Source: Candidatus Hydrogenedentota bacterium | Lineage (GTDB): Bacteria > Hydrogenedentota > Hydrogenedentia > Hydrogenedentales > CAITNO01 | Direction: 5' to 3' | Length of the DNA: 64,000 nucleotides | Assembly: GCA_012730105.1 (NCBI GenBank) | Contig: JAAYBJ010000003.1 | Location: forward strand, 13,450 to 77,449 | In this document: positions 10,193-28,504 of the stretch, one piece after another | Numbering within the stretch: position 1 is the first letter of the stretch | How the letters are laid out: each line of letters opens with the position of its first letter | The notes under the pieces: generated by a model | What the model saw: the letters and a program-made list of their open reading frames with translations, nothing else | What the model was told of the DNA's origin: nothing | Databases searched by the model: none | Made by a program: the position numbers and the translations under genes

Positions 10193-13100
10193 CTAGCGGC
10201 GCTTGCGCAGCGAGGCGACACCGGCGAGCGCGGAGGCGGCGGCTGCCAAGAGCAGGCCGAAGGCGCCCGCAACGGGCACACCGGAAGTGACGATGAGCGC
10301 CACTTCATTGGTGTCCACCGAACTCGACGCATCACTCACGCTGCACTTGTACGCCCCGGTATCCGTGAACTCGGCGCTTTCGATGACATAGATCGCCGCA
10401 TCCGGCGCATCCGGGATCACTTCGCCATTCTTCGTCCAGATGTAATGAAGTTCCCCGGCGCTGCAATTTTCAGACAACGGGGCGGCGGTGAAGGTCGAGG
10501 TGCCGCCCGGCGTTACCGGGTTAACGTCCACCGTCAGTTCATAAGCCAGCTCGCAGTCTTCGGGCTTCACCACCACGGTGCGCGCCGTCGCAACCGAATT
10601 CGCGGAGCTGTCACTGACCGTGTAGGTGAGCACATACGTGGCGACTTCATTTGTATTGGCCACGTCACCGTCGATAACGATGGCGCCGGACAGGTCGCCT
10701 TCGCATTCGTCCCACGCCTCGGCACCGGCTTCCACATAGAGGCTGCCGTCGGTGAGGATCACCGGGTTGTCGCCCAGCAGCGCGATGGACGGAGCCGTAG
10801 TATCCGCGACGGTCACCTCGCGCTCCGCGTTGGCAGTATTGCCGGCGCCGTCGGAAACGCTGTAGGTTACGATCTGCAGGCCGAGGACGGCGGTATTGGC
10901 GCCCTCGCCAATGACGATGGCACTGGTCAAGTCGCCTTCACAGACATCCGCCGCTGTCGCGCCGGCTTCTTCATAGATGTCGACGTTGCATTCCAACTGC
11001 AGTACGGCTTCGCCCAGCAGTTCAATCACCGGCGCGGCTGTGTCGGCCACCGTTACGGTCCGGGTGACTGTGGCCGCATTGCCCGCGGCGTCCTCGGCGT
11101 CGTAAGAAACGATATAGGCGTCGGGCACAGCTGTATTCACCAGGTCATCCCCGGTAATAATTACCGGCACAGAACCGTCTACGTTGTCTTCCGCGGTGGC
11201 GCCTGCTTCAATGAAGATGTCCGTATTGCATTCGAGCGTTTCATCGGAGCCGTTCATGGTAATCACAGGCGCTTCGCCGATGGCGCCGCCAAGATCGGAA
11301 CCTTCATTGTCGCGGATGAAGTTGCCCGCCGAATCTTCGACGGAGAAGGGCGTTACTGTAATCACAATATCGCCGCCGTTGAACATTTCATCGGGACGCA
11401 CCCAAACCAGACGGTATTCGGTGCCGCTCACCGTTTCCACACTGCTGGGATTGGCGGACAAGGTGCCGATGCCGGAACCGGAAACCGTGTAGTTGCCGGG
11501 AACATCCATGCCGATACCGCCCGTCATGTCCTTGTTGTAAGTCACCACGACAGTCAATTCGCTTTCCACTTGGACCAGCACGATATCCGGTTGTGAGGTA
11601 TCGAGCACGATCACCGTGCGGGTTACCTGCACCGCGTCGTTGCCCTGGGCGTCGGCAACATCATAAGTGACCGTGTAGGTGTCAGGAGTATTGGTGTCCA
11701 CCGGATTCACCGTGACAATGCTGCCGGTCAGGTCAACAGCGCCGCAACTGTCAGCGGCGGTGGCGCCAGCATCGGTGTAGACACTGAACATGTCCACGTA
11801 CACAACCGAGTCGCCTAGCAGGGTAATCACCGGCAGGGTGGTATCCACCACATGCACCGTGCGCGTCACCTGGGTCGCGGCATTAAGGGCCGTATCGCTG
11901 ACATCATAGGTGACCGTATAGTCGCCGACAACATCCACGTCCACCGGATTGACCGTAGAAATAGAACCGGTCAACTCACCGTCGCACACGTCATCAGCGG
12001 TCGCACCGGCATCGGTGTAACTGGTACTGCATTCCACCGTTACCTCCGCATCACCCACCAAGGTGATGACCGGCGCCGTGGTATCCACCACGTTGACCTG
12101 GCGCACAACCGGTATCGCGGCGTTACCCGCGGCATCAGATACGGTGTAGGTCACCGTGTAATTGCCGGGCACGGCCGTATCAACAGTGCTGACCGCGTTC
12201 GGGGTCAATGGCCCGTCGCAGTTATCATTCGCGGTGGCGCCAGCATCTGTGTAGGTGGCGCCGCATTCGACGGTCACCGGGCTCACGCCACTCATCGCAA
12301 TAACCGGCAGAACATCGTCCACCACCGTTACAGTGGCGTTGCACGATGCCAAATTACCCGCCCCGTCCCGCACATTCAACACTGCAGATACCGACGGCAT
12401 GTCGGCGCACGTAAAGGTCCGGGTTGCCGCACCGTCAATCAGCCACTGGGTGATGCCGCAGTTGTCCGTGCTCCCGCCGTCAATGGCATTGGCATTAATC
12501 GTGGGCGAACTCAAGTTCACTGTGATGTTCTTGCACACCGCGACCGGGTTGGTCGTGTCCGTAATGGTTAAGGTGGTATTGCAGGTGGCGGTAAGCCCGG
12601 CCGTATCCGTCACGGTGATGGTCACGGTTTGCGTACCCGTCACCATTGTACCGGCCGGGGGATTCTGGGCCACACTGGCGACACCACAATTATCCGCATA
12701 CACGCCGGTCGGGAGGAAGTTGGGCATGACCGCCTGGCAGTTGGCGTCGCCGACCGCCGACTGGGGCGGCGGGCAAACCGAAATCACCGGCGGCGTCACA
12801 TCCACCACCGTCACTACAGGACCGCAGGGCACTGCATTGCCACCCACGTCCGTTACCGTGATTTGAATCGGGATGGGGCCGAGCGGCAGAAGCGTGCCCG
12901 CGGCCGGGAATTGGGTAATACTCGCGATGCCGCAGTTGTCCGTCGCGGTTACCAGCGCGGCCAGGTTCGGCGCCGGCGCCACGCACGCGGCATTAGCGTT
13001 CAGTGTCTGATTGCCCGGGCAGAAAGTGATGACCGGGGCGATCGGGTCGTTCACGGTCACCGTGGCGTTGCACGTTGCCGTGCGGCCGATTCGATCCGTT

Positions 13101-14497
13101 ATGGTCAAGGTCACCGTCTTGCTCGGGATATCGGCGCTGCCGAAAGTGGTCTGAGAGGCAATACGCTTATAGATGCCCGCCTCGGCGATGCTGCCGCCGT
13201 CAATGTTGGCCGCTGTCATGGTGCCTGCACAACTGGCATCCAGGTTCACGGTGTAGGCCGCACACACGGCCGACGGCCCGTTCGCGCTGTATTCATACGC
13301 GCCCATATCACGCGCGCCGCCAAGCGGACGCGGGACCAGGCGAATGTCCTCAGTGATGGCCGAACTACCGGTATTCAAACAGGGCGCGCCGGTGATCTGA
13401 TAGGGGAACGGCGCGGCGCCGGAGAAGTTCGGGAGTGCATTGATATTGCCCGTGCCCGGATAGAGGCCGCCGTCAATATCGCTATAGGTACAGGTCAGGT
13501 TCTTTACGGCGCCGGTGATGGCGGCATTTACAATACCGACATTCCCTGTGTTGCCATAGGAGATGGCAGAAAGGACCGAGCCGGCCGTCGCGGGCAGGGT
13601 GCCCACGGTCACGTTAAAGATACCACCGCTGGTAAGACCATGATTCGGGTTGCCGGGCACAGCCGCACCCAAGCCCACGGTATTGGCCGTGATGGTGCAA
13701 TGAATCACTTGCGGCGTGGAAAGATTGATGAACAGGCCGCCGCCGCCTCGGGCCGGATTGCTCTGCCAGTCTAGGTTACGCGTGGCCGTGTTGCCGTCAA
13801 TCACGCAGTTGATGTACTGGGCGGCCGCCGCATCGCCCGAGATGCCTTCGTTCGCCACACCGCCGCCGCTGACGCTGGCGGTATTGCCGTAAATGCGGCA
13901 GTTGGCGATGACCGGGTTGGACCGCCAGTTGTAGATGCCGCCGCCGCGATAGGCATGATACACGCCCGATACGCCCGCGGCGTTACCGCCCGTAATCTGA
14001 AACCCGTCGAGTCTTGAACCCACCGTGGGGGCGGCGCCTTTGCCGAACACCACCACGTGATAGGCGGGACTGCCCGCGCGGGACGTGGCGCCGTTGATGA
14101 CGGTAACATTGATGCCGGGCGCGCGTTGGTTCAGGAGGGTTTCCTGCTGGCCCGTGCCGCCGCGCCATCCTTCAAACCCGCCATACACGGCGACGTTGTC
14201 CTTCATGACCAGCGAGCCGGCATAGGCGGTCGGGCCGCCCCACAATTCCGTGCGCGCTTCATTGTAGACCACGCCGCCCGGCGCACCGGCGACCCACACC
14301 TGGCCGCCGCCCGCGGCGAACATGGCGTCAATGGCGGGCTGAATCGTCGTAAAGGCGTTCTGCCACGACGTGCCGTTGTTCGCGCCCGTGGCGGATTTGT
14401 CCACGAATCTGACCTGCGCGTCAGCGTCTACTGCGGCAAAAAACGTTACCACAATAGCGCATAGGAAAACAGATAAAGACAATCGAGAGGGTTTCAT
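10193..14497 (-). CDS. Giant (1434-aa) secreted adhesin-like protein: N-terminal right-handed beta-helix (pectin-lyase fold) domain, about 10 Ig-like (DUF5011-type) repeats, and a C-terminal GVPVAG-TM-LRKRR anchor
   Basis: Signal peptide MKPSRLSLSVFLCAIVVTFFAAVDADA; TAAGGAG RBS. Beta-helix repeats (NCRIYGNTASVSGGGV, NCVIDGNTA). Repeated GATAxDxCDGxLT Ig-like modules. The C-terminal Ig-like domain and hydrophobic/basic tail are shared with the 7885..10008 product. Confidence 0.85.
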   Translation of the reverse strand: MKPSRLSLSVFLCAIVVTFFAAVDADAQVRFVDKSATGANNGTSWQNAFTTIQPAIDAMFAAGGGQVWVAGAPGGVVYNEARTELWGGPTAYAGSLVMKDNVAVYGGFEGWRGGTGQQETLLNQRAPGINVTVINGATSRAGSPAYHVVVFGKGAAPTVGSRLDGFQITGGNAAGVSGVYHAYRGGGIYNWRSNPVIANCRIYGNTASVSGGGVANEGISGDAAAAQYINCVIDGNTATRNLDWQSNPARGGGGLFINLSTPQVIHCTITANTVGLGAAVPGNPNHGLTSGGIFNVTVGTLPATAGSVLSAISYGNTGNVGIVNAAITGAVKNLTCTYSDIDGGLYPGTGNINALPNFSGAAPFPYQITGAPCLNTGSSAITEDIRLVPRPLGGARDMGAYEYSANGPSAVCAAYTVNLDASCAGTMTAANIDGGSIAEAGIYKRIASQTTFGSADIPSKTVTLTITDRIGRTATCNATVTVNDPIAPVITFCPGNQTLNANAACVAPAPNLAALVTATDNCGIASITQFPAAGTLLPLGPIPIQITVTDVGGNAVPCGPVVTVVDVTPPVISVCPPPQSAVGDANCQAVMPNFLPTGVYADNCGVASVAQNPPAGTMVTGTQTVTITVTDTAGLTATCNTTLTITDTTNPVAVCKNITVNLSSPTINANAIDGGSTDNCGITQWLIDGAATRTFTCADMPSVSAVLNVRDGAGNLASCNATVTVVDDVLPVIAMSGVSPVTVECGATYTDAGATANDNCDGPLTPNAVSTVDTAVPGNYTVTYTVSDAAGNAAIPVVRQVNVVDTTAPVITLVGDAEVTVECSTSYTDAGATADDVCDGELTGSISTVNPVDVDVVGDYTVTYDVSDTALNAATQVTRTVHVVDTTLPVITLLGDSVVYVDMFSVYTDAGATAADSCGAVDLTGSIVTVNPVDTNTPDTYTVTYDVADAQGNDAVQVTRTVIVLDTSQPDIVLVQVESELTVVVTYNKDMTGGIGMDVPGNYTVSGSGIGTLSANPSSVETVSGTEYRLVWVRPDEMFNGGDIVITVTPFSVEDSAGNFIRDNEGSDLGGAIGEAPVITMNGSDETLECNTDIFIEAGATAEDNVDGSVPVIITGDDLVNTAVPDAYIVSYDAEDAAGNAATVTRTVTVADTAAPVIELLGEAVLQLECNVDIYEEAGATAADVCEGDLTSAIVIGEGANTAVLGLQIVTYSVSDGAGNTANAEREVTVADTTAPSIALLGDNPVILTDGSLYVEAGAEAWDECEGDLSGAIVIDGDVANTNEVATYVLTYTVSDSSANSVATARTVVVKPEDCELAYELTVDVNPVTPGGTSTFTAAPLSENCSAGELHYIWTKNGEVIPDAPDAAIYVIESAEFTDTGAYKCSVSDASSSVDTNEVALIVTSGVPVAGAFGLLLAAAASALAGVASLRKRR

Positions 14498-14858
14498 CAC
14501 GTAGACTCCTTACGTTGTTGTTCCATCGAAGCACACCGCCAACGTGCAGACCGGGTACAGGACTACCGATGTAAAGATATCCTGTTGCCTCAACCCTTCA
14601 CTGTCGTGGCTCCGACGCCTCACATTACTTGTTTCTTATAAATACGACACCCAAGAAGAAACGCCTTGCGTTTCCATATTTTAGTAAAAATCCCAGACTA
14701 CCTGAATAACGCTTACACTACAGGGTAAATCAAATTTCACGAAAAGTCAAGAACTTTAAACGAGGCGCTTGTTTTTTCTCGGGCTAAATGCGATATACAT
14801 CACATCCAGATCTGACTGATATAGACACGGTCCATCAAACACGCATTATTCACAGTAT

Positions 14859-15236: not shown

Positions 15237-16211
15237 ATGAAAATCGTGATTACCCGCCGTATACCCGAGGCGGGGGTTGAAACGCTTGTCCACGCATTCG
15301 GCACGGAACAGGTCCGACGGCATGAGGAAGAACGACCCATGACACGGGCCGTACTTCTTGATGCCCTCCGGGGCGCGACGGCCGTGCTTTGCACCATTAC
15401 GGAGAAGATGGACGCGGAGGCCATGGACGCCGCAGGCGACCAGTTGAAAATCATCGCGAATATGGCCGTCGGTTATGACAATATTAACCTGGCCGATGCT
15501 GCGGCGCGGAATATTTTGGTAACCAATACGCCCGGCGTCCTGACGGAAGCCACGGCGGACCTGGCTTGGGCGCTGATCCTGGGCGCGGCGCGCCGTACAG
15601 GCGAAGCGGAACGCTGCCTGCGCGCCGGGTTGTGGGAAGGCTGGGGACCGCTCCAGTTCCTGGGCGCGTCGGTGCACGGCAAAACGCTGGGCATTTTCGG
15701 CATGGGCCGCATCGGCCGCGCTGTGGCGCGTCGCGCCCTCGGTTTTGACATGCCCGTCCTCTACTGCGACACAAACCGCCTCGATGCTGAAACGGAGCGG
15801 CAGCTGCATGCCCGGCTCGTTGACAAAGACACTTTGCTTCGCGAATCGGATATCCTGACCCTGCACTGCCCCCTAACCCCGGAAACGCGCCACGCCTTCA
15901 CCCTGCGGGAATTCAAACAGATGAAACGTGGCGCCCTGATCGTCAACACTTCCCGGGGCCCCGTAATCAAAGAGGAGGACTTGTCCGCCGCGCTACGGGA
16001 AGACCTGATTTTCGCCGCAGGCCTCGACGTGTATGAACACGAACCCGCCGTGCACGCAGCACTGCTGAAACAAGAACAGGCCGTGCTGCTGCCGCACCTG
16101 GGCAGCGCCACCGTGGAAACGCGCGCCACCATGGCGCGCATGGCGGCGGAAAATATCGTCGCCGCCCTGTCCGGCAGTGAACCGCCGAACCGGGTCCTCC
16201 TCCCTTCGTGA
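15237..16211 (+). CDS. D-isomer-specific 2-hydroxyacid dehydrogenase (glyoxylate/hydroxypyruvate reductase family)
   Basis: NAD-binding GIFGMGRIGRAVARRA. Overall architecture typical of GhrB/glycerate dehydrogenase-like enzymes, with catalytic R/E/H spacing. Confidence 0.9.
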   Translation: MKIVITRRIPEAGVETLVHAFGTEQVRRHEEERPMTRAVLLDALRGATAVLCTITEKMDAEAMDAAGDQLKIIANMAVGYDNINLADAAARNILVTNTPGVLTEATADLAWALILGAARRTGEAERCLRAGLWEGWGPLQFLGASVHGKTLGIFGMGRIGRAVARRALGFDMPVLYCDTNRLDAETERQLHARLVDKDTLLRESDILTLHCPLTPETRHAFTLREFKQMKRGALIVNTSRGPVIKEEDLSAALREDLIFAAGLDVYEHEPAVHAALLKQEQAVLLPHLGSATVETRATMARMAAENIVAALSGSEPPNRVLLPS

Positions 16212-16245
16212 TCCTAATACGGGCGCTGCCCACAACCCAACGCCC

Positions 16246-16385
16246 CATCGTATTCGTGCTCGTAACTCGTATTCGTAATCGGAAAAAACAGAACAGAGAT
16301 TCGATTACGAAGCACGAGTACGAAGCACGAGTACGAAGCACGAGTACGAAGCACGAGTACGAAGCACGAGTACGAAGCACGATTC
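16246..16385. repeat. 13-bp tandem repeat array (CGAAGCACGAGTA x about 5.7, 16308-16383) preceded by a degenerate inverted copy (16246-16285), forming a potential long hairpin
   Basis: Direct reading of the sequence; lies 35 bp after the stop of the dehydrogenase gene. Confidence 0.75.
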
Positions 16386-16534
16386 ATCCTAAAAACGGCC
16401 GTTGGATTCAGAAGTGGTTTTCAAACCAAGGCGCTTAGGGTCATTTCGCTGACAATTAATTATGAGTTCTGCTTTAAGTATAGGTAACCAAGAAGAGTGT
16501 CATGTTTTGATTTGTCTCAAAGACCCAAAAACAA

Positions 16535-16777
16535 CGCGTCATTCCGGTTTTTCGCGGTGGGAAAAAGAAATGTATCGAAGAGTGTGCCAAGCCGCGAAAA
16601 GACCGGAATCTATCTTTGGAAGCCGCGCATGAGGAACAGCCCGTGTCGGATTTATTTTTTAAGATGGGAAATGGGCATTCATTGCGGTGCGACGAATCTG
16701 GATTCCGGTCTTTTTCGCGTTGTACAGTACCGTTCTTCGATCCGAGCCAGAGATCGCGAAAAAACCGGAATGACGCG
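16535..16777. mobile_element. R1 MITE-like element, copy 2
   Basis: Same TIRs (CGCGTCATTCCGGTTTTTCGCG / CGCGAAAAAACCGGAATGACGCG) and same internal unit sequences as 7246..7483. The centre is variable. Confidence 0.55.
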
Positions 16778-16924
16778 ACTTGGGGTTGTTTATAATAAAA
16801 AGCGAAGTGCGTTGATGCGGGCGTTTTTATTCACCTTTTTTTTCGTATGTAGTGTTGACTTTTGCTGCGCCAAGGGCGTCACTTCTTCCGGGCGAAGTCC
16901 CGGACGAAGCGTAGGGACTTGAAG

Positions 16925-17045
16925 GATATAAAGGACGAAAAGGACTGTAAACCGCTCTCCTGATTAGTATGTCCTTTACGCCTCTTAAGTCCTTTCGGTC
17001 CTTTCTTTTAAGAGGCTTTCCTGGCATTAACTGCCGTTTATGGGT
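16925..17045. repeat. R2 palindromic repeat, copy b (reverse orientation)
   Basis: AAAGGACGAAAAGGAC...GTCCTTTCGGTCCTTTCTTTTAAGAGGCTTTCCTGGCATTAACTGCCGTTT matches the other copies. Confidence 0.5.
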
Positions 17046-17396
17046 TCATAACACGCGTGCTCATACGTGAGACCAAGCAGTATGAACAGGAGTGAACACC
17101 ATGGCTGACTTCATTATTTTTTGTCGATTACAAGCCGATAAAGCTCTTTTATACATTTCATTATCCGGCAAAAGTGCCGGATAATTCCTATTCAGAGAAC
17201 CACTGTCAAACGCTTTGCGCCGGTGTCAGTTGAGGATTACCCCTGTTTCATGGATGTGAATCGACGGGTATGTTTTTTTGACATCGCGGCGCCAGCGCGT
17301 GTACACTTCCCGCAACCGGATGTCAGGTTCCGGTACAGGCTACGCCGCAGACTGCTGAAAACAGCGGCACATTCACCCTACGACCCCGGCCGTTAA

Positions 17397-18758
<1,362 letters not shown>

Positions 18759-18785
18759 TGTAAGGAATGTCACGAATGAAACACA

Positions 18786-18848
18786 GGGGCAGTCCCGTCT
18801 CGCTTCCGTTGGTCGCTCATTTGGGACAGTCCCTGTGTTTCAATTTAA
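18786..18848 (+). terminator. Terminator-like long imperfect hairpin after gdhA
   Basis: AAACACAGGGGCAGTCCC ... GGGACAGTCCCTGTGTTT, followed by CAATTT. Confidence 0.45.
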
Positions 18849-18896
18849 GCCCGCAAAGTAGGGACAGTTCCTCATGACACTTTGCGTTCCCCAGAA

Positions 18897-18976
18897 ACGA
18901 TGAAAATGTAGACGCGGCGTCCCCGCCGCGTTATAAAAGCGGCTGGGAAGCCGCTTCTACATTCATTGATTACAAC
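18897..18976. repeat. R3 double-palindrome element, copy 2, abutting the GTG start of the next gene
   Basis: AACGATGAAAATGTAGACGCGGCGTCCCCGCCGCGTTATAAAAGCGGCTGGGAAGCCGCTTCTACATTCATTGATTACA. The stems are conserved relative to copy 1 while the loops differ. Confidence 0.6.
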
Positions 18977-21658
18977 GTGTTATTTGAAATTTTCAGGGCA
19001 GACCAAAGGAACCACACTGTGGTCAAAAAGACGGATTTAAGCACAGGCCTCCAGGAACTGGATCAGCTGCTGCGCGGTTTGATCTCGGGGGACAACCTGG
19101 TCTGGCGCGTGGATCACGTCGAGGATTACGCGGTTTTCGCGCGGCCGTACTGCGCGTTCGGGCTGGCATCGGGGCGGCCGGTAGTCTACCTGCGCTACGC
19201 AAACCATCCACCGATCCTGACGCCGGACGACTTTTCCGGCAATGTCAAGATTTACGATCTCGACCCGCGCATCGGGTTCGAACCTTTTCTTGACGCCGTC
19301 CACGACGCCATTGAAGAGACGCCCCGGGACGCCTACTATGTCTTTGATTCGCTGTCCAGCCTGGCGGAAACCTGGTACAGCGACCAGATGCTCTGCAATT
19401 TTTTCATGCTTACCTGCCCCTACCTGTACGACCGGGGGGACATCGCTTATTTCGCGCTGATGCGCGACCTGCATTCGAACGAGGCGGTCATGCCCATCCG
19501 AGACACGGCGCAGGTCATGGTGGACGTGCACCGGCACGAAGGCGAGCTGTACCTGCGCCCATTGAAAACCCAGCAGCGCTTCTCGCCGACCATGCACATG
19601 ATGCATCATTGGAGCGGCCGCTCGTTTCAGCCCATCTCAGAGAGTTACACCATCGCCGGGGTGCTGCACACTGCCCCGCCCTCGGCGGTCGGTTGCGCGG
19701 TGCGCCCGTTGGACGCCTGGAACAAGACCTTCCTGCAGGCACAGGATCTCCTGCTCGGCCCCGAGGAGGCGAGGAATAGCGAATACGCGGGGCTGCTCTT
19801 CGAGCGCCTGCTGCGCATGGTCATCTCCAGGGACGCGCGCATCCTGGAGCTGGCGCGGGAATATCTCACGCTGGACGACATGCTCGACATCGGGCGGCGG
19901 GTCATCGGGACCGGCATGATCGGCGGCAAGGCGGTCGGCATGCTCCTGGCCCAGGCCATTCTGAAACGGCATGCGCCGGAGCGGTGGCGCGGGCTTCTTG
20001 AAGGTCATGACAGTTTCTATATCGGCGCGGACGTCTTCTACACCTTTTTAGTGCGCAACGGTTGCTGGTGGATCCGGCGCCGTCAAAAAACGGCCAGCGA
20101 TTTCCTGGAGGGCGCCCAGCAGATCCGGCGGCGCATCATCACGGGGGTGTTCCCCCGCGAGGCCGAGGACGAACTGGCGCGCATGCTGGATTATTTCGGG
20201 TGCTCCCCCATCATTGTGCGTTCCAGTTCCCTGCTGGAAGACAATTTCGGCAACGCCTTCGCCGGTAAGTATGAGAGCGTGTTTTGTCCGAACCAGGGCT
20301 CCTTCCAGCAACGCCTGGAAGACTTCAAGTCGGCCGTGCGCACCGTTTACGCCAGCGCGATGAGCGAAGACGCCCTGGCCTACCGCAAGTGCCACGGTCT
20401 GCTGGACAAGGAAGAACAGATGGGCCTGCTCGTGCAGCGCGTTTCGGGCGTGCAGCGGGCGGACCTGTTCTTTCCGGACGCGGCGGGCGTCGCCTTTTCC
20501 TACAACCCCTACGTCTGGCACGAGGACATCGACCCCGAGGCCGGTATCGTGCGCCTGGTGTTCGGCCTGGGCACCCGCGCCGTAAACCGCGCCGACGACG
20601 ACTACACGCGCATCATCGCGCTTAACGCTCCCCTGCAGACCCCGGAGAGCGGACGTGCGGCAGGGCGGAAATATTATCAGCACAAGGTGGACGTGCTGGA
20701 CCTCGGCGCCAACCACCTGACCACGATGGATTTCGGCCAGGTACTTAAACGCATAGAAAACGGGCAGTGCACCTCCTGGCGCCTCGTGTCCATGCGCGAC
20801 CAGGAACTGGAACGGAGAAACCGGCAGGGAGAGCGGCAGAGCGCCTCGCCCCTGTTCATCAATTTCGACCGGTTCCTGAAGGAAACCCATTTCGTCGAGG
20901 ACATGCGCAACGGGCTGGAAATTATCCAGAAGGCCTACCGGTACCCGGTGGACGTGGAGTTTACCCTGAATTTCGCCGCCGAGAAAGAATACCGCATCAA
21001 CATCGTCCAGTGCAGGCCCCTGCAGGTGAAAGGGAACGCCCGGGCGGAGGCCCTGCCCGACAATATCCCGGAGGACCGGATACTGCTGCGCTCCTCAGGG
21101 CCCGTGATCGGCCAGACGCGGTCGGACGTGGTGGACCGTTTTATCTTTGTCAACCCGGAAACCTACGGGCAACTGCCCGTGCAGGAGCGCCACCGCATCG
21201 CGCGCCTTATCGGGCAGTTGACCCACTGCGATGCCGTCTGCCAGCATCCCCAAGTAATGCTGCTCGGACCGGGACGCTGGGGCACATCCACACCTTCGCT
21301 GGGCGTGCCGGTGAATTTCGCCGAGATCGAGAACGTGTCGGTCCTGTGTGAAATTGTGGCCATGCGCGAAGACCTGGTGCCCGACGTGTCCATGGGCACG
21401 CACTTTTTCAGCGAGCTGGTGGAGATGGAGATGCTTTATCTGACCCTGTTTCCGGACAAGGCGGACTCGGTGCTCGCGTCCCGGTTCTTCCTGGAAGCGC
21501 CCAACCACCTCGCGGAGGCGCTGCCGGGCGCAGAGCCCTATGCGGATGTGGTGCGGCTGCTGCACCTGGACGATATCGCCCCCGGCGCCCGGGCGCGGCT
21601 TTACGCCGATTCGATGAAGCAGCAGACGCTGTGCTTTATCGAACCGGCCTCCAAGTAA
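18977..21658 (+). CDS. Large (893-aa) protein: unknown N-terminal ~300-aa domain fused to a PEP-synthase/PPDK N-terminal-like ATP-binding (ATP-grasp) kinase domain
   Basis: GGKAVGMLLAQ and IIVRSSSLLEDNFGNAFAGKYESV resemble the nucleotide-binding motifs of pyruvate,water dikinase / rifampin phosphotransferase N-domains. There is no His swivel domain. GTG start, with no ATG for about 138 codons. Confidence 0.75.
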   Translation: MLFEIFRADQRNHTVVKKTDLSTGLQELDQLLRGLISGDNLVWRVDHVEDYAVFARPYCAFGLASGRPVVYLRYANHPPILTPDDFSGNVKIYDLDPRIGFEPFLDAVHDAIEETPRDAYYVFDSLSSLAETWYSDQMLCNFFMLTCPYLYDRGDIAYFALMRDLHSNEAVMPIRDTAQVMVDVHRHEGELYLRPLKTQQRFSPTMHMMHHWSGRSFQPISESYTIAGVLHTAPPSAVGCAVRPLDAWNKTFLQAQDLLLGPEEARNSEYAGLLFERLLRMVISRDARILELAREYLTLDDMLDIGRRVIGTGMIGGKAVGMLLAQAILKRHAPERWRGLLEGHDSFYIGADVFYTFLVRNGCWWIRRRQKTASDFLEGAQQIRRRIITGVFPREAEDELARMLDYFGCSPIIVRSSSLLEDNFGNAFAGKYESVFCPNQGSFQQRLEDFKSAVRTVYASAMSEDALAYRKCHGLLDKEEQMGLLVQRVSGVQRADLFFPDAAGVAFSYNPYVWHEDIDPEAGIVRLVFGLGTRAVNRADDDYTRIIALNAPLQTPESGRAAGRKYYQHKVDVLDLGANHLTTMDFGQVLKRIENGQCTSWRLVSMRDQELERRNRQGERQSASPLFINFDRFLKETHFVEDMRNGLEIIQKAYRYPVDVEFTLNFAAEKEYRINIVQCRPLQVKGNARAEALPDNIPEDRILLRSSGPVIGQTRSDVVDRFIFVNPETYGQLPVQERHRIARLIGQLTHCDAVCQHPQVMLLGPGRWGTSTPSLGVPVNFAEIENVSVLCEIVAMREDLVPDVSMGTHFFSELVEMEMLYLTLFPDKADSVLASRFFLEAPNHLAEALPGAEPYADVVRLLHLDDIAPGARARLYADSMKQQTLCFIEPASK

Positions 21659-21693
21659 GACAACGGGGGCACAGCGCGAAAGGAATATCAGTC

Positions 21694-22125
21694 ATGAACG
21701 AGGAACAGGCCCTGCCTTTTTCGCTGTCCGTCAAGGCCATTGTCATGGATAAGGATAAACGGTGCCTCGTGCTCCGGCGTTCCATGGCGTCAAAAAATAA
21801 TGCGGGTAAATGGGAGTTCCCCGGGGGAAAACTAAATCCGGGCGAATCCTTCGACAACGCGCTTGAACGCGAGGTACATGAGGAGACCGGCCTGGAAATC
21901 ACCCTGCTGCGTCCCTTCGACACCGCCATGTCGTCCATCCAAGACCGGCGCGTGGTCTATCTGTTCATGCTTGCCGAAACCGGGACGGATCGGGTGCGCC
22001 TGAGCAACGAGCATGACGCGTTCCAGTGGGTCGCTGTGGACCGGCTCGCGGAGGTGGACCTGGCGCGACAGTTCCAAAGCGTGGCGCAGCGCATGGCCGA
22101 AGCTGTTCTGAACGGCGCGCTGTGA
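21694..22125 (+). CDS. Nudix hydrolase
   Basis: Nudix box GGKLNPGESFDNALEREVHEETGL (GX5EX7REUXEEXGU). AAAGGAA RBS before the ATG at 21694. Begins 33 bp after the upstream gene ends. Confidence 0.85.
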   Translation: MNEEQALPFSLSVKAIVMDKDKRCLVLRRSMASKNNAGKWEFPGGKLNPGESFDNALEREVHEETGLEITLLRPFDTAMSSIQDRRVVYLFMLAETGTDRVRLSNEHDAFQWVAVDRLAEVDLARQFQSVAQRMAEAVLNGAL

Positions 22126-22189
22126 ATGAATTTCGAAACCCAGGGACCGAAAAATAGCGATAACGTCCTGCCCGGACATGCGCCTAAGA

Positions 22190-22423
22190 CTAGGCATGCA
22201 CCATCTCCAATTCCATGGTAACGATCATGGTGGGGTTTGCGGCCAACCCCATATCGGACAGATCTTCATCCTCGAGATGCAAAGAAACCGCTTCATGCAA
22301 ATTCGCAATGGTTTCGTCAAGTGTCCGGCCTTGAGTAACGACGGGGATTTCCAGACACTCCGCCACATAACCCGAATTATCTCCGCAACGGACCACGGCC
22401 TTTATTGTATGCTGCAATTGCAT
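22190..22423 (-). CDS. HicB-like (UPF0150 family) antitoxin-like protein, apparently orphan
   Basis: GYVAECLEIPVVTQGRTLDETIANLHEAVSLHLED matches the HicB N-domain consensus. AGGAGA RBS. No recognisable HicA found nearby. Confidence 0.65.
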   Translation of the reverse strand: MQLQHTIKAVVRCGDNSGYVAECLEIPVVTQGRTLDETIANLHEAVSLHLEDEDLSDMGLAANPTMIVTMELEMVHA

Positions 22424-22684
22424 CGACTCATCTCCTGAATATCAGTACCGCCTTCTGGAAGAAGATCAGTAGTATCCTTTTTTGTATTATACCCCAGCAT
22501 GAAATCTGTAAGGCCAAAGCACAAAGTATAAGGCTTGACCCACAGCATCGTCCATAGAGGCCTGATGATTAGAATTCGATCACTTTCCGCCAGGCAACGA
22601 CTTTGATACAATGAAACTATCGACGGCGCGGAATAAGAATCACCGCGTCCTGCCGGGCTGCGAATACATAAGGAGCCTGCGTTC

Positions 22685-23761
22685 ATGTGTTACCGACATT
22701 TTCTTGCCGGAATCCTTCTACCGGGCCTGATCTGTTGCGCACAGGCCGGGGCTGAAAACACTTTCACGGCGGCTGCCTCGCCGCAGGAGGAACGGATAAA
22801 AGCGTTTTGCATTGATTTTAACTGGGGCCCGGAGGGCTTTGCCAAGCCGGGCATGTGCGCCGGCGCGTCGGCAAAAAAACATTTCGAATGGTACCGGGAC
22901 ATGGGGGTCAACACCATTCAGACCTTCTGCGTGAGCTGTCCCGGATACGCGTGGTACAACAGCGACGTCGCCCCGGTACAGCCGGGCATGGAGGGTGATT
23001 TCCTCAAGGAACTGGTGGAACTCGGACACGGGGCGGGCATGCGCGTCATGGGCTATTTCTGTATCGGCGCCAACACCTACTGGAATGAAAAGCATCCAGA
23101 CCTGAGCCACAACTTCCCCAGCGCCATTTCCATCCCTTTTACCCTGCAATACCTGGACTACCTGGAACGGGTCATCCGCGAGGCCGTCAGCAAGACGGGT
23201 ATTGACGGCTTCATGATCGACTGGGTCTACAACGCCTCCCATCTCTATCCCGACCGAAAGTATACCTGGCTGGATTGTGAGAAGCAGATGTACACGGAAT
23301 TATTCAACGAAGCGTTTCCCGGGGACGCAGCCATGGATGAAGGGCGCATCAACGCGTTCAACAAACGCGCCACGGAACGCTGCTGGGACCGCATTCGCAG
23401 CGCTACGAAATCGACCAATCCGGACTGCATCCTCTGGCTGACCTGTTATGACCTACAGCATCCCATGCTGAAAGGTTCCCGAATGCTGCGCGAAGTGGAT
23501 TGGATCATGAACGAACATCCCGACACGGAAAAACTGGCCAATCTGCGCGCCGTCATCGGGCCACAAACAAAAATCATCCAGTGCATCTGCGGCTGGGGCG
23601 ACCAGCACAATGCGGAAAAGATTATTAACGATCCCGCCTTCAATGCCCTCGGCCTCTACGGGTTCGCGCGCCCCGACCTCACCACCACCCTGCCCCCGGA
23701 CGACGACTCCGGAAATGCCCGCAATATCGCGGCCATGCGCAAGGCCTTTAATCTGCGGTAG
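22685..23761 (+). CDS. Secreted hypothetical protein, possibly a glycoside-hydrolase-like TIM-barrel
   Basis: Signal peptide; AAGGAG RBS. Weak resemblance to the N-domain of the 29410 gene product (GYAWYNSD vs NYAYYNSK). Family not assignable by eye. Confidence 0.6.
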   Translation: MCYRHFLAGILLPGLICCAQAGAENTFTAAASPQEERIKAFCIDFNWGPEGFAKPGMCAGASAKKHFEWYRDMGVNTIQTFCVSCPGYAWYNSDVAPVQPGMEGDFLKELVELGHGAGMRVMGYFCIGANTYWNEKHPDLSHNFPSAISIPFTLQYLDYLERVIREAVSKTGIDGFMIDWVYNASHLYPDRKYTWLDCEKQMYTELFNEAFPGDAAMDEGRINAFNKRATERCWDRIRSATKSTNPDCILWLTCYDLQHPMLKGSRMLREVDWIMNEHPDTEKLANLRAVIGPQTKIIQCICGWGDQHNAEKIINDPAFNALGLYGFARPDLTTTLPPDDDSGNARNIAAMRKAFNLR

Positions 23762-26308: not shown

Positions 26309-28504
26309 ATGAATTTTTGGCGATTATTGTCTCTTGCCCTGTGCGTATGCGCGGCGGCGACTGCCGATGACCTGGGCAGCCTGCATTCACTGTCAGAGGA
26401 GGTGGCGGTCGTGGGAGCGGATTGGCTGGTAGACCCGATAGAAACAAAAGCGGGCGTCTATCGCGGGCCCGACGGGAAGAGCATGGTTCTTTCCAACGGC
26501 CTGTTGCGACGCACCTTTCGCTTGGAACCCAATGCCGCCACTATCAGGTTTGACAATCTCGTATCGGGTGAGGCGTTGCTGCGCGGCGTAAAGCCTGAGG
26601 CTGTCATTACGATTGACGGTAAATCAATCGAGGTGGGCGGTCTGAAAGGGCAGCCCAATTACGCCTTCCTGCGCGAGGAATGGCTCAATACCCTCAGCGC
26701 CGCACCGGAAGCAATGCGTTTTACGGGCTTTGCCGTCGGGCCCATAGAGGAACGGATGACCTGGAACCGGGTCCGTCATCATGCGCCCGGCATTGCCTGG
26801 CCGCCGAAAGGCATACACCTGCGCATGGTGTACGCCATGCCCGAAGGCACAGCTTCGCCGCTACAGGATGTTACCGTATCGGTGCACTATGAGCTGTACG
26901 ACGGGTTGCCCGTGCTCTGCAAATGGATATCTGTCACCAACACCGGGACCAAGCCGGTCATGCTCGACCGTTTCATCAGCGAGTTACTTGCCGCGGTGGA
27001 ATACAGTTCCGACGTGGAGGACCGGGCCGGCGCGGCGCGCCACCCGAATATTCTCGTGGAAACGGATTACGCTTTCCTGGCCATGAGTTCCATGAACGCG
27101 GGCCGTCATGCCGTGCGCTGGACGCCCGATCCCGACTACGAAACGCAGGTCAACTACGAGCGGAAGAATCCCTGCCTGCTGCAGGTCGGCCCGGATCCCG
27201 GCCCGGCGGCAACACTGCAGCCCGGCGAAACCTTTTCCTCCTTCCGGACCTGGTTGCTCCCCTTTGACGGAGACGACCGGGAACGGAACGGTCTCGCCCA
27301 GCGGCGGATGTACCGCACCATAGCGCCATGGGTCACGGAGAATCCGCTGATGCTGCACGCGCGATTCTCTAATCAAAAAGCGGTCGAGAAAGCCATCGAC
27401 CAGTGCGCCGACGTCGGCTTCGAAATGGTCATCCTGACCTTCGGCAGCGGCTTTGATATTGAGGATGACAGCCCGGCTTACCTGGAAAAAATGAAGGGGT
27501 ATGCGGAATACGCCCATGCCCGGGGCATTGAAATCGGGGGCTATTCTCTTTTAGCCTCAAGAAGCATCGACCCGGAAAATAATATCGTTTCTCCGGAAGA
27601 TTCCCCGCCCGCTTTCGGCCAATCCCCCTGCATCCAAAGCGCATGGGGACAGGCGTATTTCAAAAAGTTGTATGCGTTTTATGAGCGTACCGGCTTCACC
27701 CTTTTAGAACATGACGGCTCCTATCCCGGCGATCTGTGCGCAAGCGCGAGCCATCCGGGGCATCGCGGTCTGGAAGACTCCCGCTGGTCCCAATGGAAAA
27801 CCATAACGGATTTCTATCACTGGTGCCGCGGCCGGGGCGTCTTCCTGAATGTGCCGGACTGGTATTTCCTGAGCGGGTCGAACAAGACCGGAATGGGCTA
27901 CCGGGAAACCAATTGGAACCTGCCACGGGATCAGCAGGTTATCCACACGCGCCAGAATATTTATGACGGCACTTGGGAGAAAACGCCCGGCATGGGCTGG
28001 ATGTTCGTGCCCCTCACCGAGTACCACGGCGGCGGCGAAGCGGCCACTATCGAACCACTTGACGAGCACCTTGACCACTATGAACGCATGCTCGTGAGCA
28101 ACCTGGCCTTCGGCGTCCAGGCCTGCTATCGTGGCCCGCGTCTTTACGATACGGACCGCACCCGGGACACGGTTAAGAAGTGGGTTTCCTGGTACAAGAC
28201 ACACCGGGACATCCTGGAAAGCGACCTTATCCATGGTCGGCGCGCGGACGGGCGTGATCTTGACTGGATGCTGCATGTGAACCCGCTGTTACCGGTCAAA
28301 GGCATGCTGGTCGTATTCAATCCCCTCGACCAGCCCATGGAACGAACCCTGGCCGTTAATCTGTATTATACGGGTTTGAAAGAACGGGCGGTTATTGTCG
28401 GGGAATCAGGAGAAGAACAGGAATTGCTCCTGAATCGTAATTACACGGTTCCCATAACGGTCCAAGCGAGTGCATGCGGTTTTACCTGGTATAAGATACG
28501 ATGA
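26309..28504 (+). CDS. Secreted glycoside hydrolase-like protein (family unassigned; alpha-galactosidase/GH36-like architecture suspected)
   Basis: Signal peptide. N-terminal beta-sandwich, then a TIM-barrel-like core with many conserved aromatic/acidic residues. 731 aa. Low confidence on family. Confidence 0.7.
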   Translation: MNFWRLLSLALCVCAAATADDLGSLHSLSEEVAVVGADWLVDPIETKAGVYRGPDGKSMVLSNGLLRRTFRLEPNAATIRFDNLVSGEALLRGVKPEAVITIDGKSIEVGGLKGQPNYAFLREEWLNTLSAAPEAMRFTGFAVGPIEERMTWNRVRHHAPGIAWPPKGIHLRMVYAMPEGTASPLQDVTVSVHYELYDGLPVLCKWISVTNTGTKPVMLDRFISELLAAVEYSSDVEDRAGAARHPNILVETDYAFLAMSSMNAGRHAVRWTPDPDYETQVNYERKNPCLLQVGPDPGPAATLQPGETFSSFRTWLLPFDGDDRERNGLAQRRMYRTIAPWVTENPLMLHARFSNQKAVEKAIDQCADVGFEMVILTFGSGFDIEDDSPAYLEKMKGYAEYAHARGIEIGGYSLLASRSIDPENNIVSPEDSPPAFGQSPCIQSAWGQAYFKKLYAFYERTGFTLLEHDGSYPGDLCASASHPGHRGLEDSRWSQWKTITDFYHWCRGRGVFLNVPDWYFLSGSNKTGMGYRETNWNLPRDQQVIHTRQNIYDGTWEKTPGMGWMFVPLTEYHGGGEAATIEPLDEHLDHYERMLVSNLAFGVQACYRGPRLYDTDRTRDTVKKWVSWYKTHRDILESDLIHGRRADGRDLDWMLHVNPLLPVKGMLVVFNPLDQPMERTLAVNLYYTGLKERAVIVGESGEEQELLLNRNYTVPITVQASACGFTWYKIR

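Follow-up and report, generated by a model that had tools for sequence, protein, structure and literature searches.

Dikinases are known that act on pyruvate, rifampin, phenol, and glucans, and to our knowledge the characterized enzymes built around this type of ATP-grasp domain all have small molecules or glucans, rather than proteins, as phosphoryl acceptors. Rifampin phosphotransferase (RPH), PigC/RedH, phenylphosphate synthase, and the HpeHI-type enzymes serve antibiotic, pigment, or aromatic metabolism. Nitrogen, on the other hand, enters biomass through glutamate dehydrogenase (GDH) and glutamate synthase (GOGAT), and bacterial GDHs offer precedents for dedicated partner proteins that are nucleotide sensing or phosphorylation dependent, such as Thermus GdhA/GdhB-APRTh and GarA/OdhI. 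The APRT-like subunit of the Thermus enzyme exerts allosteric control through complex formation. In the nitrogen PTS, EI-Ntr (PtsP) joins a sensor domain to a module that generates phospho-His and reports nitrogen status, and E. coli ptsP adjoins the Nudix gene rppH.

Here, we compare with these systems a locus within a 64,000-nucleotide stretch of a Candidatus Hydrogenedentota contig (the window), in which a large gene, called X below, lies directly downstream of gdhA (Table 1). X differs from RPH, PigC/RedH, phenylphosphate synthase, and the HpeHI-type dikinases in having a P-loop-less RecA/KaiC fold as the putative substrate-defining module and nitrogen assimilation as its genomic context. 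Thermus GdhA/GdhB-APRTh and GarA/OdhI have protein folds unrelated to that of X. EI-Ntr is an analogy only, as it uses PEP, carries a TIM-barrel domain and a GAF sensor, and shares no homology with X beyond the general swiveling fold class.

Table 1. Features of the gdhA-X-Nudix locus (positions in the window)
Feature	Coordinates	Strand	Remarks
gdhA, hexameric-type NADP-glutamate dehydrogenase, 446 aa	17418..18758	+	Pfam ELFV_dehydrog_N + ELFV_dehydrog
gdhA-X spacer, 260 nt	18759..19018	+	Two long hairpins, three copies of palindrome GGGACAGTCCC
Family gene X	19019..21658	+	879 aa (probable start); 893 aa if the upstream GTG at 18977 is used instead
KaiC/RecA-like domain without Walker A P-loop (predicted)	19019..19693	+	Residues 1-225 (879-aa numbering)
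PPDK_N ATP-grasp nucleotide-binding domain	19916..21073	+	GGK, RSSS..ED, D-x-E, QCRP motifs
C-terminal domain, ~200 aa, swiveling beta/beta/alpha-like fold (predicted)	21074..21655	+	No Pfam family
Codon of invariant His H795 (879-aa numbering)	21401..21403	+	Motif GTHFF; candidate phospho-carrier
MutT-like Nudix hydrolase, 143 aa	21694..22125	+	PF00293 E=8.6e-24; lineage-specific neighbor

Gene X and its three modules

The large open reading frame (ORF) at 18977..21658 on the forward strand encodes the 893 aa of the original prediction when counted from its first GTG, and the motifs quoted there, GGKAVGMLLAQ and IIVRSSSLLEDNFGNAFAGKYESV, are both located in its translation. However, translation probably starts at the GTG at 19019, since a database protein with 100% identity has 879 aa, homologues begin at the same point, and AAAGGA, an RBS-like sequence that also precedes the Nudix gene, sits 8 nt upstream. 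Both ORFs are real genes. The X protein comprises three modules, i.e., a KaiC/RecA-fold domain, a PPDK_N ATP-grasp domain, and a C-terminal swiveling-beta/beta/alpha-like domain, the first and last being assigned from predicted structures.

Consistent with the nucleotide-binding region of the PPDK/PEP-synthase type that had been predicted, a Pfam scan assigned PF01326 (PPDK_N) to residues 314-699 of the 893-aa form (E=3.7e-50), leaving residues 1-313 and 700-893 without a significant match. The GGK, RSSS..ED, D-x-E, and QCRP motifs were invariant across 26 homologues; RSSS..ED, D-x-E, and Q-x-RP align with the equivalent motifs in solved PEP synthases, and the nucleotide- and Mg-binding motifs are intact. 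The same scan detected neither the canonical phospho-His swivel (PF00391, GG.TSH motif) nor the PEP/pyruvate-binding TIM barrel (PF02896), in line with the domain losses proposed earlier, and X has no RIF-binding domain. Its NCBIfam scores (14 to 68 bits) were far beneath the cutoffs (456 to 1700) of the PEP synthase, PPDK, RPH, and PigC families, for example, 43.6 bits versus 739.75 for TIGR01418, 68.3 versus 883 for NF004881, and 31.1 versus 999 for NF041857 (RPH), the last with an alignment confined to ATP-grasp residues 379-532. PEP synthases and RPH in the PDB likewise aligned with X solely across the ATP-grasp region, and an end-to-end alignment with a characterized PEP synthase or RPH was absent. 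Judged from its sequence, the architecture of X, rightly called nonstandard at the outset, is unlike that of any characterized enzyme.

The N-terminal domain, for which the original prediction found no place, has indeed no Pfam match, but its fold can be assigned. A Foldseek search of the PDB with its model returned KaiC, FlaH, PH0284, and RecA (E about 1e-8 to 2e-8, probability 1.0) in alignments spanning about 230 columns. Behind the domain, a helical linker extends to residue 299. With KaiC, FlaH (ArlH), and PH0284, residues 1-225 share the fold, the N-terminal motif sTGlp.lD.ll.Gg, and a hydrophobic strand resembling Walker B, with an invariant Asp (FD) at its end. They differ at the Walker A motif: a profile alignment placed vdsvedya of X opposite GGPGTGKT of PH0284 and GATGTGKT of KaiC, and the family consensus at this position is VDxIEDY. 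An acidic, non-glycine segment thus stands in place of GxxGxGKT, and therefore canonical NTP binding is not expected. The model and the profile alignment indicate a KaiC/RecA fold that has lost its P-loop, a module that we know of in no characterized dikinase; the X family would add a new case of this fold being recycled without a P-loop. The domain is rich in invariant Arg, His, Lys, and Asp residues and matched 842 clusters (clustered at 50% identity). In one case, on a single metagenomic contig, the domain occurs without the other two modules, with its family-specific motifs, at the N-terminus of a PAS-GAF-HisKA-HATPase histidine kinase whose neighbors are a sigma54 NtrC-type regulator and a REC protein. 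Because the same domain heads this one kinase, it may have a sensory or regulatory role. Apparent stand-alone ORFs of the domain (~245 aa) were not taken as natural splits, as they came from contigs resembling long-read assemblies with fragmented genes or were cut by contig ends.

The C-terminal ~200 aa, which were not discussed in the original prediction, form a swiveling beta/beta/alpha-like domain in a confident predicted model. As in PpsA, the ATP-grasp domain is immediately succeeded by a small domain, whose first strand can still be aligned with the beginning of the PpsA swivel. In contrast to PpsA and PPDK, X lacks the TIM barrel and carries the additional KaiC-like domain, and its C-terminal domain is unrecognizable as PF00391, with no sequence homology to the canonical phospho-His domain found. 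H795 was invariant in 26/26 aligned sequences and is also present in P0024 and P0025, two Geobacter fusion proteins, the additional N-terminal module of P0024 retaining it as GSHFF. The model places this residue where a helix begins, following a loop predicted with low confidence. The domain is possibly a phospho-carrier that has diverged very far, and we infer that H795 could take part in phosphotransfer.

X is a member of a large, widespread, uncharacterized, and deeply conserved bacterial family. More than 100 homologues were found at 98% query coverage, and at least 583 stretches in a species-representative genome collection encode a relative. Culturable organisms that carry the gene include Geoanaerobacter pelophilus and Geobacter sp. 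OR-1, both with the fused form, and Pontiellaceae B12219. The members (~875 aa) are conserved end to end at about 50 to 55% identity between phyla, with many invariant polar residues across all three modules. A full-text literature search found no published study of the family. Two sets of longer members were rejected as Rosetta-stone fusions: the 1232-aa P0211 has only a low-complexity N-terminal extension, probably from a miscalled start, and Geobacter proteins of 1472 to 1499 aa carry an internal duplication of the ATP-grasp and C-terminal modules and join X to no other function. Membership in a known anti-phage defense system was rejected, as no PADLOC defense-protein model matched X.

Glutamate dehydrogenase genes next to X

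The original prediction did not mention gdhA upstream of the large ORF; the best PDB matches of its product are the C. glutamicum and E. coli GDHs (E about 1e-170 to 1e-181). The gdhA-X spacer has a predicted RNA fold with z=-7.4 relative to shuffled sequences, and the copies of its palindrome are found at 18786, 18823, and 18861 only. A riboswitch or other known RNA was rejected, as Rfam gave no match at E<=1 over 16200-22800. The spacer is only 65 to 156 bp long in relatives.

We conducted a neighborhood census at 80 species-representative loci carrying X relatives. In 46 of them, from at least 11 phyla, gdhA was found in the flank of X: on the same strand directly upstream in 20, divergent in 9, convergent in 6, and 1.2 to 4.4 kb away in 11. 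Nine further loci had the glutamate synthase genes gltB/gltD without gdhA, so that one or the other was near X in 55/80. At the remaining 25/80, neither was present in the available flank, several of these flanks being incomplete. An NrpR-type nitrogen repressor was encoded near X at 13 of the 80 loci. No NrpR, gltBD, or NrpR operator was found near the window locus. Among 146 immediate neighbors classified by Pfam, GDH accounted for 29 and no unrelated family exceeded 3. Regulators (NrpR, LysR) were frequent neighbors, but no further pathway enzymes were.

The GdhAs linked to X in other phyla were 61 to 87% identical to that of the window, whereas E. coli GdhA reached only 52 to 62% identity with any X-linked GdhA compared. 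These identities suggest that a particular gdhA subtype travels with X.

A possible phosphotransfer controller of glutamate synthesis

We tentatively propose that X is an ATP-driven, dikinase-like phosphotransfer controller of the 2-oxoglutarate-to-glutamate step, partnered with gdhA, with the Nudix gene being incidental; we put the probability of this reading at roughly 0.42. In the manner of dikinases, the ATP-grasp domain would draw a phosphoryl group from ATP and place it, probably, on H795 of the C-terminal domain. The group would then be handed to a target set by the KaiC-like domain, acting as a sensor or docking module. For this target, GdhA or a further component in the control of ammonium assimilation is the most probable candidate, and X would be a post-translational controller of this conversion. 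Weighing against it are the small-molecule and glucan substrates of the characterized ATP-grasp relatives, none of which is known to modify proteins, the 25 loci at which gdhA and gltBD were not seen, and, for the sensor role, the single contig behind the histidine kinase fusion. In a narrower form, which we regard as rather doubtful, X and GdhA would be a functional unit in which an ATP-grasp/phospho-His relay steered by a degenerate KaiC-like sensor covalently switches GDH or energetically assists it.

Alternatively, X may be a metabolic dikinase that phosphorylates a ligand of its KaiC-like domain, either a metabolite from the glutamate/2-oxoglutarate node or a cofactor, for example NAD(P). 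Such an activity would agree with the small-molecule or polymer substrates of all characterized PPDK_N-type enzymes, and with the linkage of X to both GDH and GOGAT, enzymes with common substrates; the very high conservation would fit as well, with the invariant Arg, His, Lys, and Asp residues of the N-terminal domain possibly forming a ligand site. However, for GDH and GOGAT chemistry no phosphorylated intermediate is known, nor is one required, the N-terminal domain also provides the input to a histidine kinase, and the recurrent neighbors of X are regulators without further pathway enzymes. We consider this explanation unlikely.

X could also be a noncatalytic or slow-turnover partner that senses ATP/AMP and controls GDH allosterically by complex formation, without phosphotransfer. 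The adjacency to gdhA and the resemblance of the P-loop-less RecA-like domain to a pseudo-enzyme module would be explained by such a role, but the catalytic ATP-grasp motifs, including the equivalents of the Mg-binding Glu and Gln, are invariant across phyla, and chemistry is therefore favored over binding only. H795 and nearby C-terminal motifs are likewise invariant, and this explanation appears improbable.

The Nudix neighbor and the public annotation of X

The Nudix gene (PF00293) follows X on the same strand, as originally described, but the gap is 35 nt instead of 33 with the most likely start, ATG 21694. Its translation contains an intact Nudix box, G45-KLNPG-E-SFDNALE-REVHEETGL (GX5EX7REUXEEXGU), and scored under every NCBIfam equivalog cutoff, including those for MutT (63.7 versus 148 for NF008044 and 55.9 versus 97.9 for TIGR00586). 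PADLOC matched it only to the candidate singleton PDC-S07 (E=2.6e-25), as expected for any small MutT-like Nudix protein.

The two genes had been proposed to form a dedicated pair that phosphorylates and then hydrolyzes a small molecule, nucleotide sugar, or antibiotic. The close same-strand spacing, the RBS-like sequence ahead of each gene, and the gdhA-X-Nudix order kept in relatives of 78 to 85% identity would suit such a module. However, the Nudix gene is missing downstream of X in relatives at 70 to 76% identity and was found at 0/80 species-level loci (searched by tblastn using the window Nudix protein as query and by a regular expression for the Nudix box), and its product is a generic MutT/NudG-like protein. 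The X-Nudix adjacency is shallow synteny only, and the conserved genomic partner of X is gdhA, not the adjacent Nudix gene. Because this adjacency is not conserved, the paired function is largely refuted, and we hold it to be very improbable. The Nudix protein would be a MutT-like housekeeping passenger sharing the transcription unit of X in one Hydrogenedentota lineage.

Public records label X relatives "pyruvate, phosphate dikinase," "phosphoenolpyruvate synthase," "pyruvate, water dikinase," or "PEP/pyruvate-binding domain" protein. That X is no more than a divergent member of the PEP synthase, PPDK, or RPH families, as these names and its PPDK_N domain would have it, is hardly credible against the missing TIM-barrel, canonical swivel, and RIF-binding domains, the very low family scores, and the PDB alignments restricted to the ATP-grasp region. 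The present analysis corrects this systematic misannotation, which would introduce errors into metabolic reconstructions for Hydrogenedentota, Planctomycetota, Geobacteraceae, and the wastewater Competibacteraceae and Dechloromonas.

That X lies beside gdhA across at least 11 phyla, in all gene orientations, suggests that an enzyme or regulator at the nitrogen-assimilation node has so far gone unstudied. If X and GdhA do act as a unit, they would represent a previously unrecognized ATP-dependent layer of control on ammonium assimilation in these phyla, one that would move with its own gdhA subtype through horizontal transfer.

Architecture and conservation of the X family

The ORF holding the motifs of the original prediction, here called X, was confirmed on the forward strand (see table), with its start corrected: GTG 19019, giving 879 aa, is likely the true start, since a 100%-identical database protein has 879 aa, homologues begin there, and AAAGGA precedes it. 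Residue numbers after this correction, such as H795, refer to the 879-aa form. A Pfam scan matched PF01326 (PPDK_N) at residues 314-699 in the 893-aa numbering (E = 3.7e-50), bearing out the pyruvate,water-dikinase-type nucleotide-binding region that had been proposed, and, as also predicted, matched neither the swivel domain (PF00391) nor the PEP-utilising domain (PF02896). The NCBIfam models for PEP synthase, PPDK, rifampin phosphotransferase, and PigC/RedH covered only part of the ATP-grasp region and scored 14-68 bits against cut-offs of 456-1700. PEP synthase, PPDK, and RPH were rejected as annotated functions of X on tests of their defining features. The only public names for the family were "PEP/pyruvate-binding domain-containing protein," "pyruvate, phosphate dikinase," "phosphoenolpyruvate synthase," and "hypothetical"; NLV42890.1 (Candidatus Hydrogenedentota) sits in the same protein cluster as X.

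Coordinates of features in the window
Feature	Position	Strand	Description
Repeat-rich protein	10193-14500	-	1435 aa, predicted secreted
Tandem array	16302-16382		6.2 copies of 13-bp unit CGAGTACGAAGCA, 98% matches
Sigma70-like promoter match	17278-17307	+	upstream of gdhA
gdhA	17418..18758	+	immediately upstream of X; Pfam; PDB GDH matches, E ~1e-180
gdhA-X spacer	18759-19018	+	260 nt vs 65-156 nt in relatives
X, first-GTG form	18977..21658	+	893 aa
Invariant His H795	21401-21403	+	codon; motif GTHFF in family alignment
Nudix gene	21694-22125	+	143 aa from internal ATG 21694 of its ORF; PF00293, E = 8.6e-24
731-aa ORF	26309-28504		no Pfam match at E<=1e-3

A protein search gave at least 8000 hits, the best 120 of which had 96-99% query coverage and approximately 857-908 aa, except for two of about 1480 aa. 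Scanning one genome per GTDB species, we found at least 583 genomic stretches encoding a relative and used the best 80 for locus comparisons. End-to-end identity to X in these 80 loci was 48-75%, and their hosts were Gamma-, Beta-, and Deltaproteobacteria, Planctomycetota, Verrucomicrobiota, Kiritimatiellia, Lentisphaerota, and Omnitrophota, as well as Hydrogenedentota, Sumerlaeota, Spirochaetes, Armatimonadota, Anaerolineales, Acidobacteria, and Nitrospirales. A 26-sequence alignment had a mean column identity of 63%, with invariant residues throughout all three regions of the protein.

The N-terminal domain (residues 1-225), in which no motif had been placed at first, could be assigned by fold: all Foldseek matches of the full-length AF2 model (pLDDT 75.6) were to the RecA superfamily, namely KaiC, FlaH, PH0284, and RecA (E ~1e-8, probability 1.0, ~230 columns). 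Its profile aligned marginally but consistently to PH0284 and KaiC, with 'sTGlpelDrvlkGl..GdnivwqVdsvedya' standing opposite their P-loop-containing stretch; the P-loop itself is absent, and a Walker-B-like FD strand is invariant. The ATP-grasp domain looks catalytically competent, since its motifs GGK, RSSS..ED, FAGKYES, D-x-E-F, and QCRP are invariant in the 26-sequence alignment, and RSSS..ED, FAG, D-x-E, and Q-x-RP line up with their counterparts in PEP synthases of known structure. With an archaeal PEP synthase, the profile alignment extends from the ATP-grasp into the first swivel strand ('GpviGqsr' of X against 'GasPGigaGr'). The C-terminal domain of about 200 aa, swivelling beta/beta/alpha-like, had no Pfam match to PF00391, and hhalign against the swivel domains of PpsA, PtsI, PtsP, PtsA, and FryA gave probabilities below 1%. 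It bears the invariant H795, which the model places at a helix start after a low-confidence loop, and it may be a very divergent carrier domain.

Variant architectures were found in Geobacter sp. OR-1 and Geoanaerobacter pelophilus (P0024, P0025, and P0311), whose proteins of 1449-1499 aa consist of a complete family protein preceded by a second copy of the linker, ATP-grasp, and C-terminal module; this copy shares 43% identity with residues 269-873. The duplicated module of P0024 keeps the H795 position as GSHFF. In one Bryobacterales MAG, the duplicated module is a separate upstream gene encoding a short paralogue (L054:4288-5907), and such duplication hints at hetero-oligomeric operation. 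A phmmer search with the N-terminal domain alone against 1.84 billion representative proteins gave 842 matches at E<=1e-3; the near-full-length ones all had 845-917 aa, and the shorter ones look like fragments. The sole non-family architecture seen was P0242 (L093:2070-4385, E = 7e-33), in which the domain, with the family motifs, precedes PAS, GAF, HisKA, and HATPase_c; its neighbors on this marine-sediment contig encode an REC protein and a sigma54 NtrC-type response regulator. Only this one protein, on one contig, suggests that the domain can serve as a signalling input module.

Genomic neighborhood of X

All-against-all ORF clustering of the 80 loci identified GdhA-like proteins as the dominant neighbor family, followed by the small and large subunits of glutamate synthase and an NrpR-like protein. 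By tblastn mapping, gdhA was present in 46 loci: immediately upstream and co-directional with X, at 25-319 bp, in 20, as in the window; divergent in 9 and convergent in 6, both within 560 bp; and 1.2-4.4 kb away in 11. Nine more loci had gltB and/or gltD without gdhA (55/80 with either), and NrpR occurred in 13/80, all these counts being lower bounds, with several "empty" loci having flanks shorter than 1.5 kb. The chance adjacency of a single-copy gene within 8 kb is about 0.5%, an order-of-magnitude estimate resting on genome size. A Pfam census of the 146 immediate neighbors bore these identities out, giving ELFV_dehydrog (29), Fer4_20/Pyr_redox_2 (5-6), GATase_2 (4), and NRD1_2 of NrpR (4), with no other family exceeding 3.

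X-linked GdhAs of other phyla were 61-87% identical to that of the window (73-77% for those of Chromatiaceae, Ectothiorhodospiraceae, and another gammaproteobacterium), whereas E. coli GdhA was only 52-62% identical to the window or X-linked GdhAs, a pattern consistent with a gdhA subtype co-transferred with X. In several genomes of Hydrogenedentota, Planctomycetota, and Verrucomicrobiota (L003, L004, L008, L028, L046, and others), a bacterial homologue of NrpR, the archaeal nitrogen repressor (NRD1_2 plus HTH_12), is divergent from gdhA-X and lies ~1.8 kb upstream of X. Neither NrpR nor gltBD was found within the 64-kb window.

The conserved partner of X is GDH and not the Nudix hydrolase, with which X had been proposed to form a two-gene module. 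A Nudix gene does follow on the same strand, at a gap of 35 nt rather than 33. The order gdhA-X-Nudix was kept in relatives at 85% (P0003), 80% (P0005), and 78% (P0007) identity; at 76% (P0008), 75% (P0010), and 70% (P0017), gdhA was still upstream and another gene lay downstream. Across the 80 loci, no match to the window Nudix emerged by tblastn at E<=1e-3, and a search of every ORF of 70 aa or more for the Nudix-box pattern was likewise negative. The original prediction had named such loss of adjacency among relatives as refuting evidence, and the proposed kinase-Nudix module is not supported; the pairing is family- or genus-level synteny. The Nudix box is complete, yet the protein scored below every NCBIfam equivalog cut-off, the best models being MutT, NudG, and PRK08999. 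It also matched the PADLOC candidate-defence singleton model PDC-S07 (E = 2.6e-25), most likely through generic MutT-like similarity and not a defence role. In E. coli K-12, nudG, a Nudix gene of MutT-like type, is found two genes upstream of gdhA (L092, 1841490-1843714), and the Nudix gene rppH adjoins ptsP (L096, 2966188-2968977), which encodes the nitrogen-sensing phosphotransferase EI-Ntr; both parallels are probably coincidental.

Local sequence features

The gdhA-X spacer is strongly structured (z = -7.4), forming two long hairpins. Within them the palindrome GGGACAGTCCC occurs three times, ~37 nt apart, and it is found nowhere else in the window. The spacer matched no Rfam family and could be a terminator/attenuator, an array of operators, or a REP/MITE-like insertion. 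The only forward-strand sigma70-like promoter match of the region precedes gdhA, and gdhA, X, and the Nudix gene could plausibly be co-transcribed. The perfect-looking tandem array lies in a 1.2-kb non-coding stretch from a 2-hydroxyacid dehydrogenase gene to gdhA. Elsewhere, GHL6-like and DUF5703/GH95-like genes precede the 731-aa ORF, which seems to form part of a gene block for polysaccharide utilisation. In the predicted secreted protein, numerous Ig/HYR-like modules are repeated in tandem, and the C-terminus is a hydrophobic tail resembling an anchor.

Possible role of X

Literature searches found no published work on the family. The superfamilies of its parts are already known; what is undescribed is their combination, in which a KaiC fold lacking its P-loop joins a PPDK-type ATP-grasp and an unrecognised, His-bearing domain of swivelling-like type, in tight linkage to gdhA. 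Beyond what was observed, namely the domain architecture, the conserved motifs, and the association of the gene with gdhA, gltBD, and NrpR, two roles were weighed. The main alternative is that X is a dikinase phosphorylating a small-molecule metabolite of the glutamate-forming node; to our knowledge, this is the activity of every characterised relative with its type of ATP-grasp. On the other hand, no additional pathway enzymes recur beside X, which, together with gdhA adjacency in all three orientations, linkage to GOGAT and transcriptional nitrogen regulators, and recruitment of the N-terminal domain into a histidine kinase, favors a regulatory role. The ATP-grasp would hydrolyse ATP, a phosphoryl group would be carried, with H795 as its probable site, and target choice or signal sensing would fall to the KaiC-like domain. 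We favor X as a putative regulator of the step that forms glutamate; GdhA is the leading candidate for its target.
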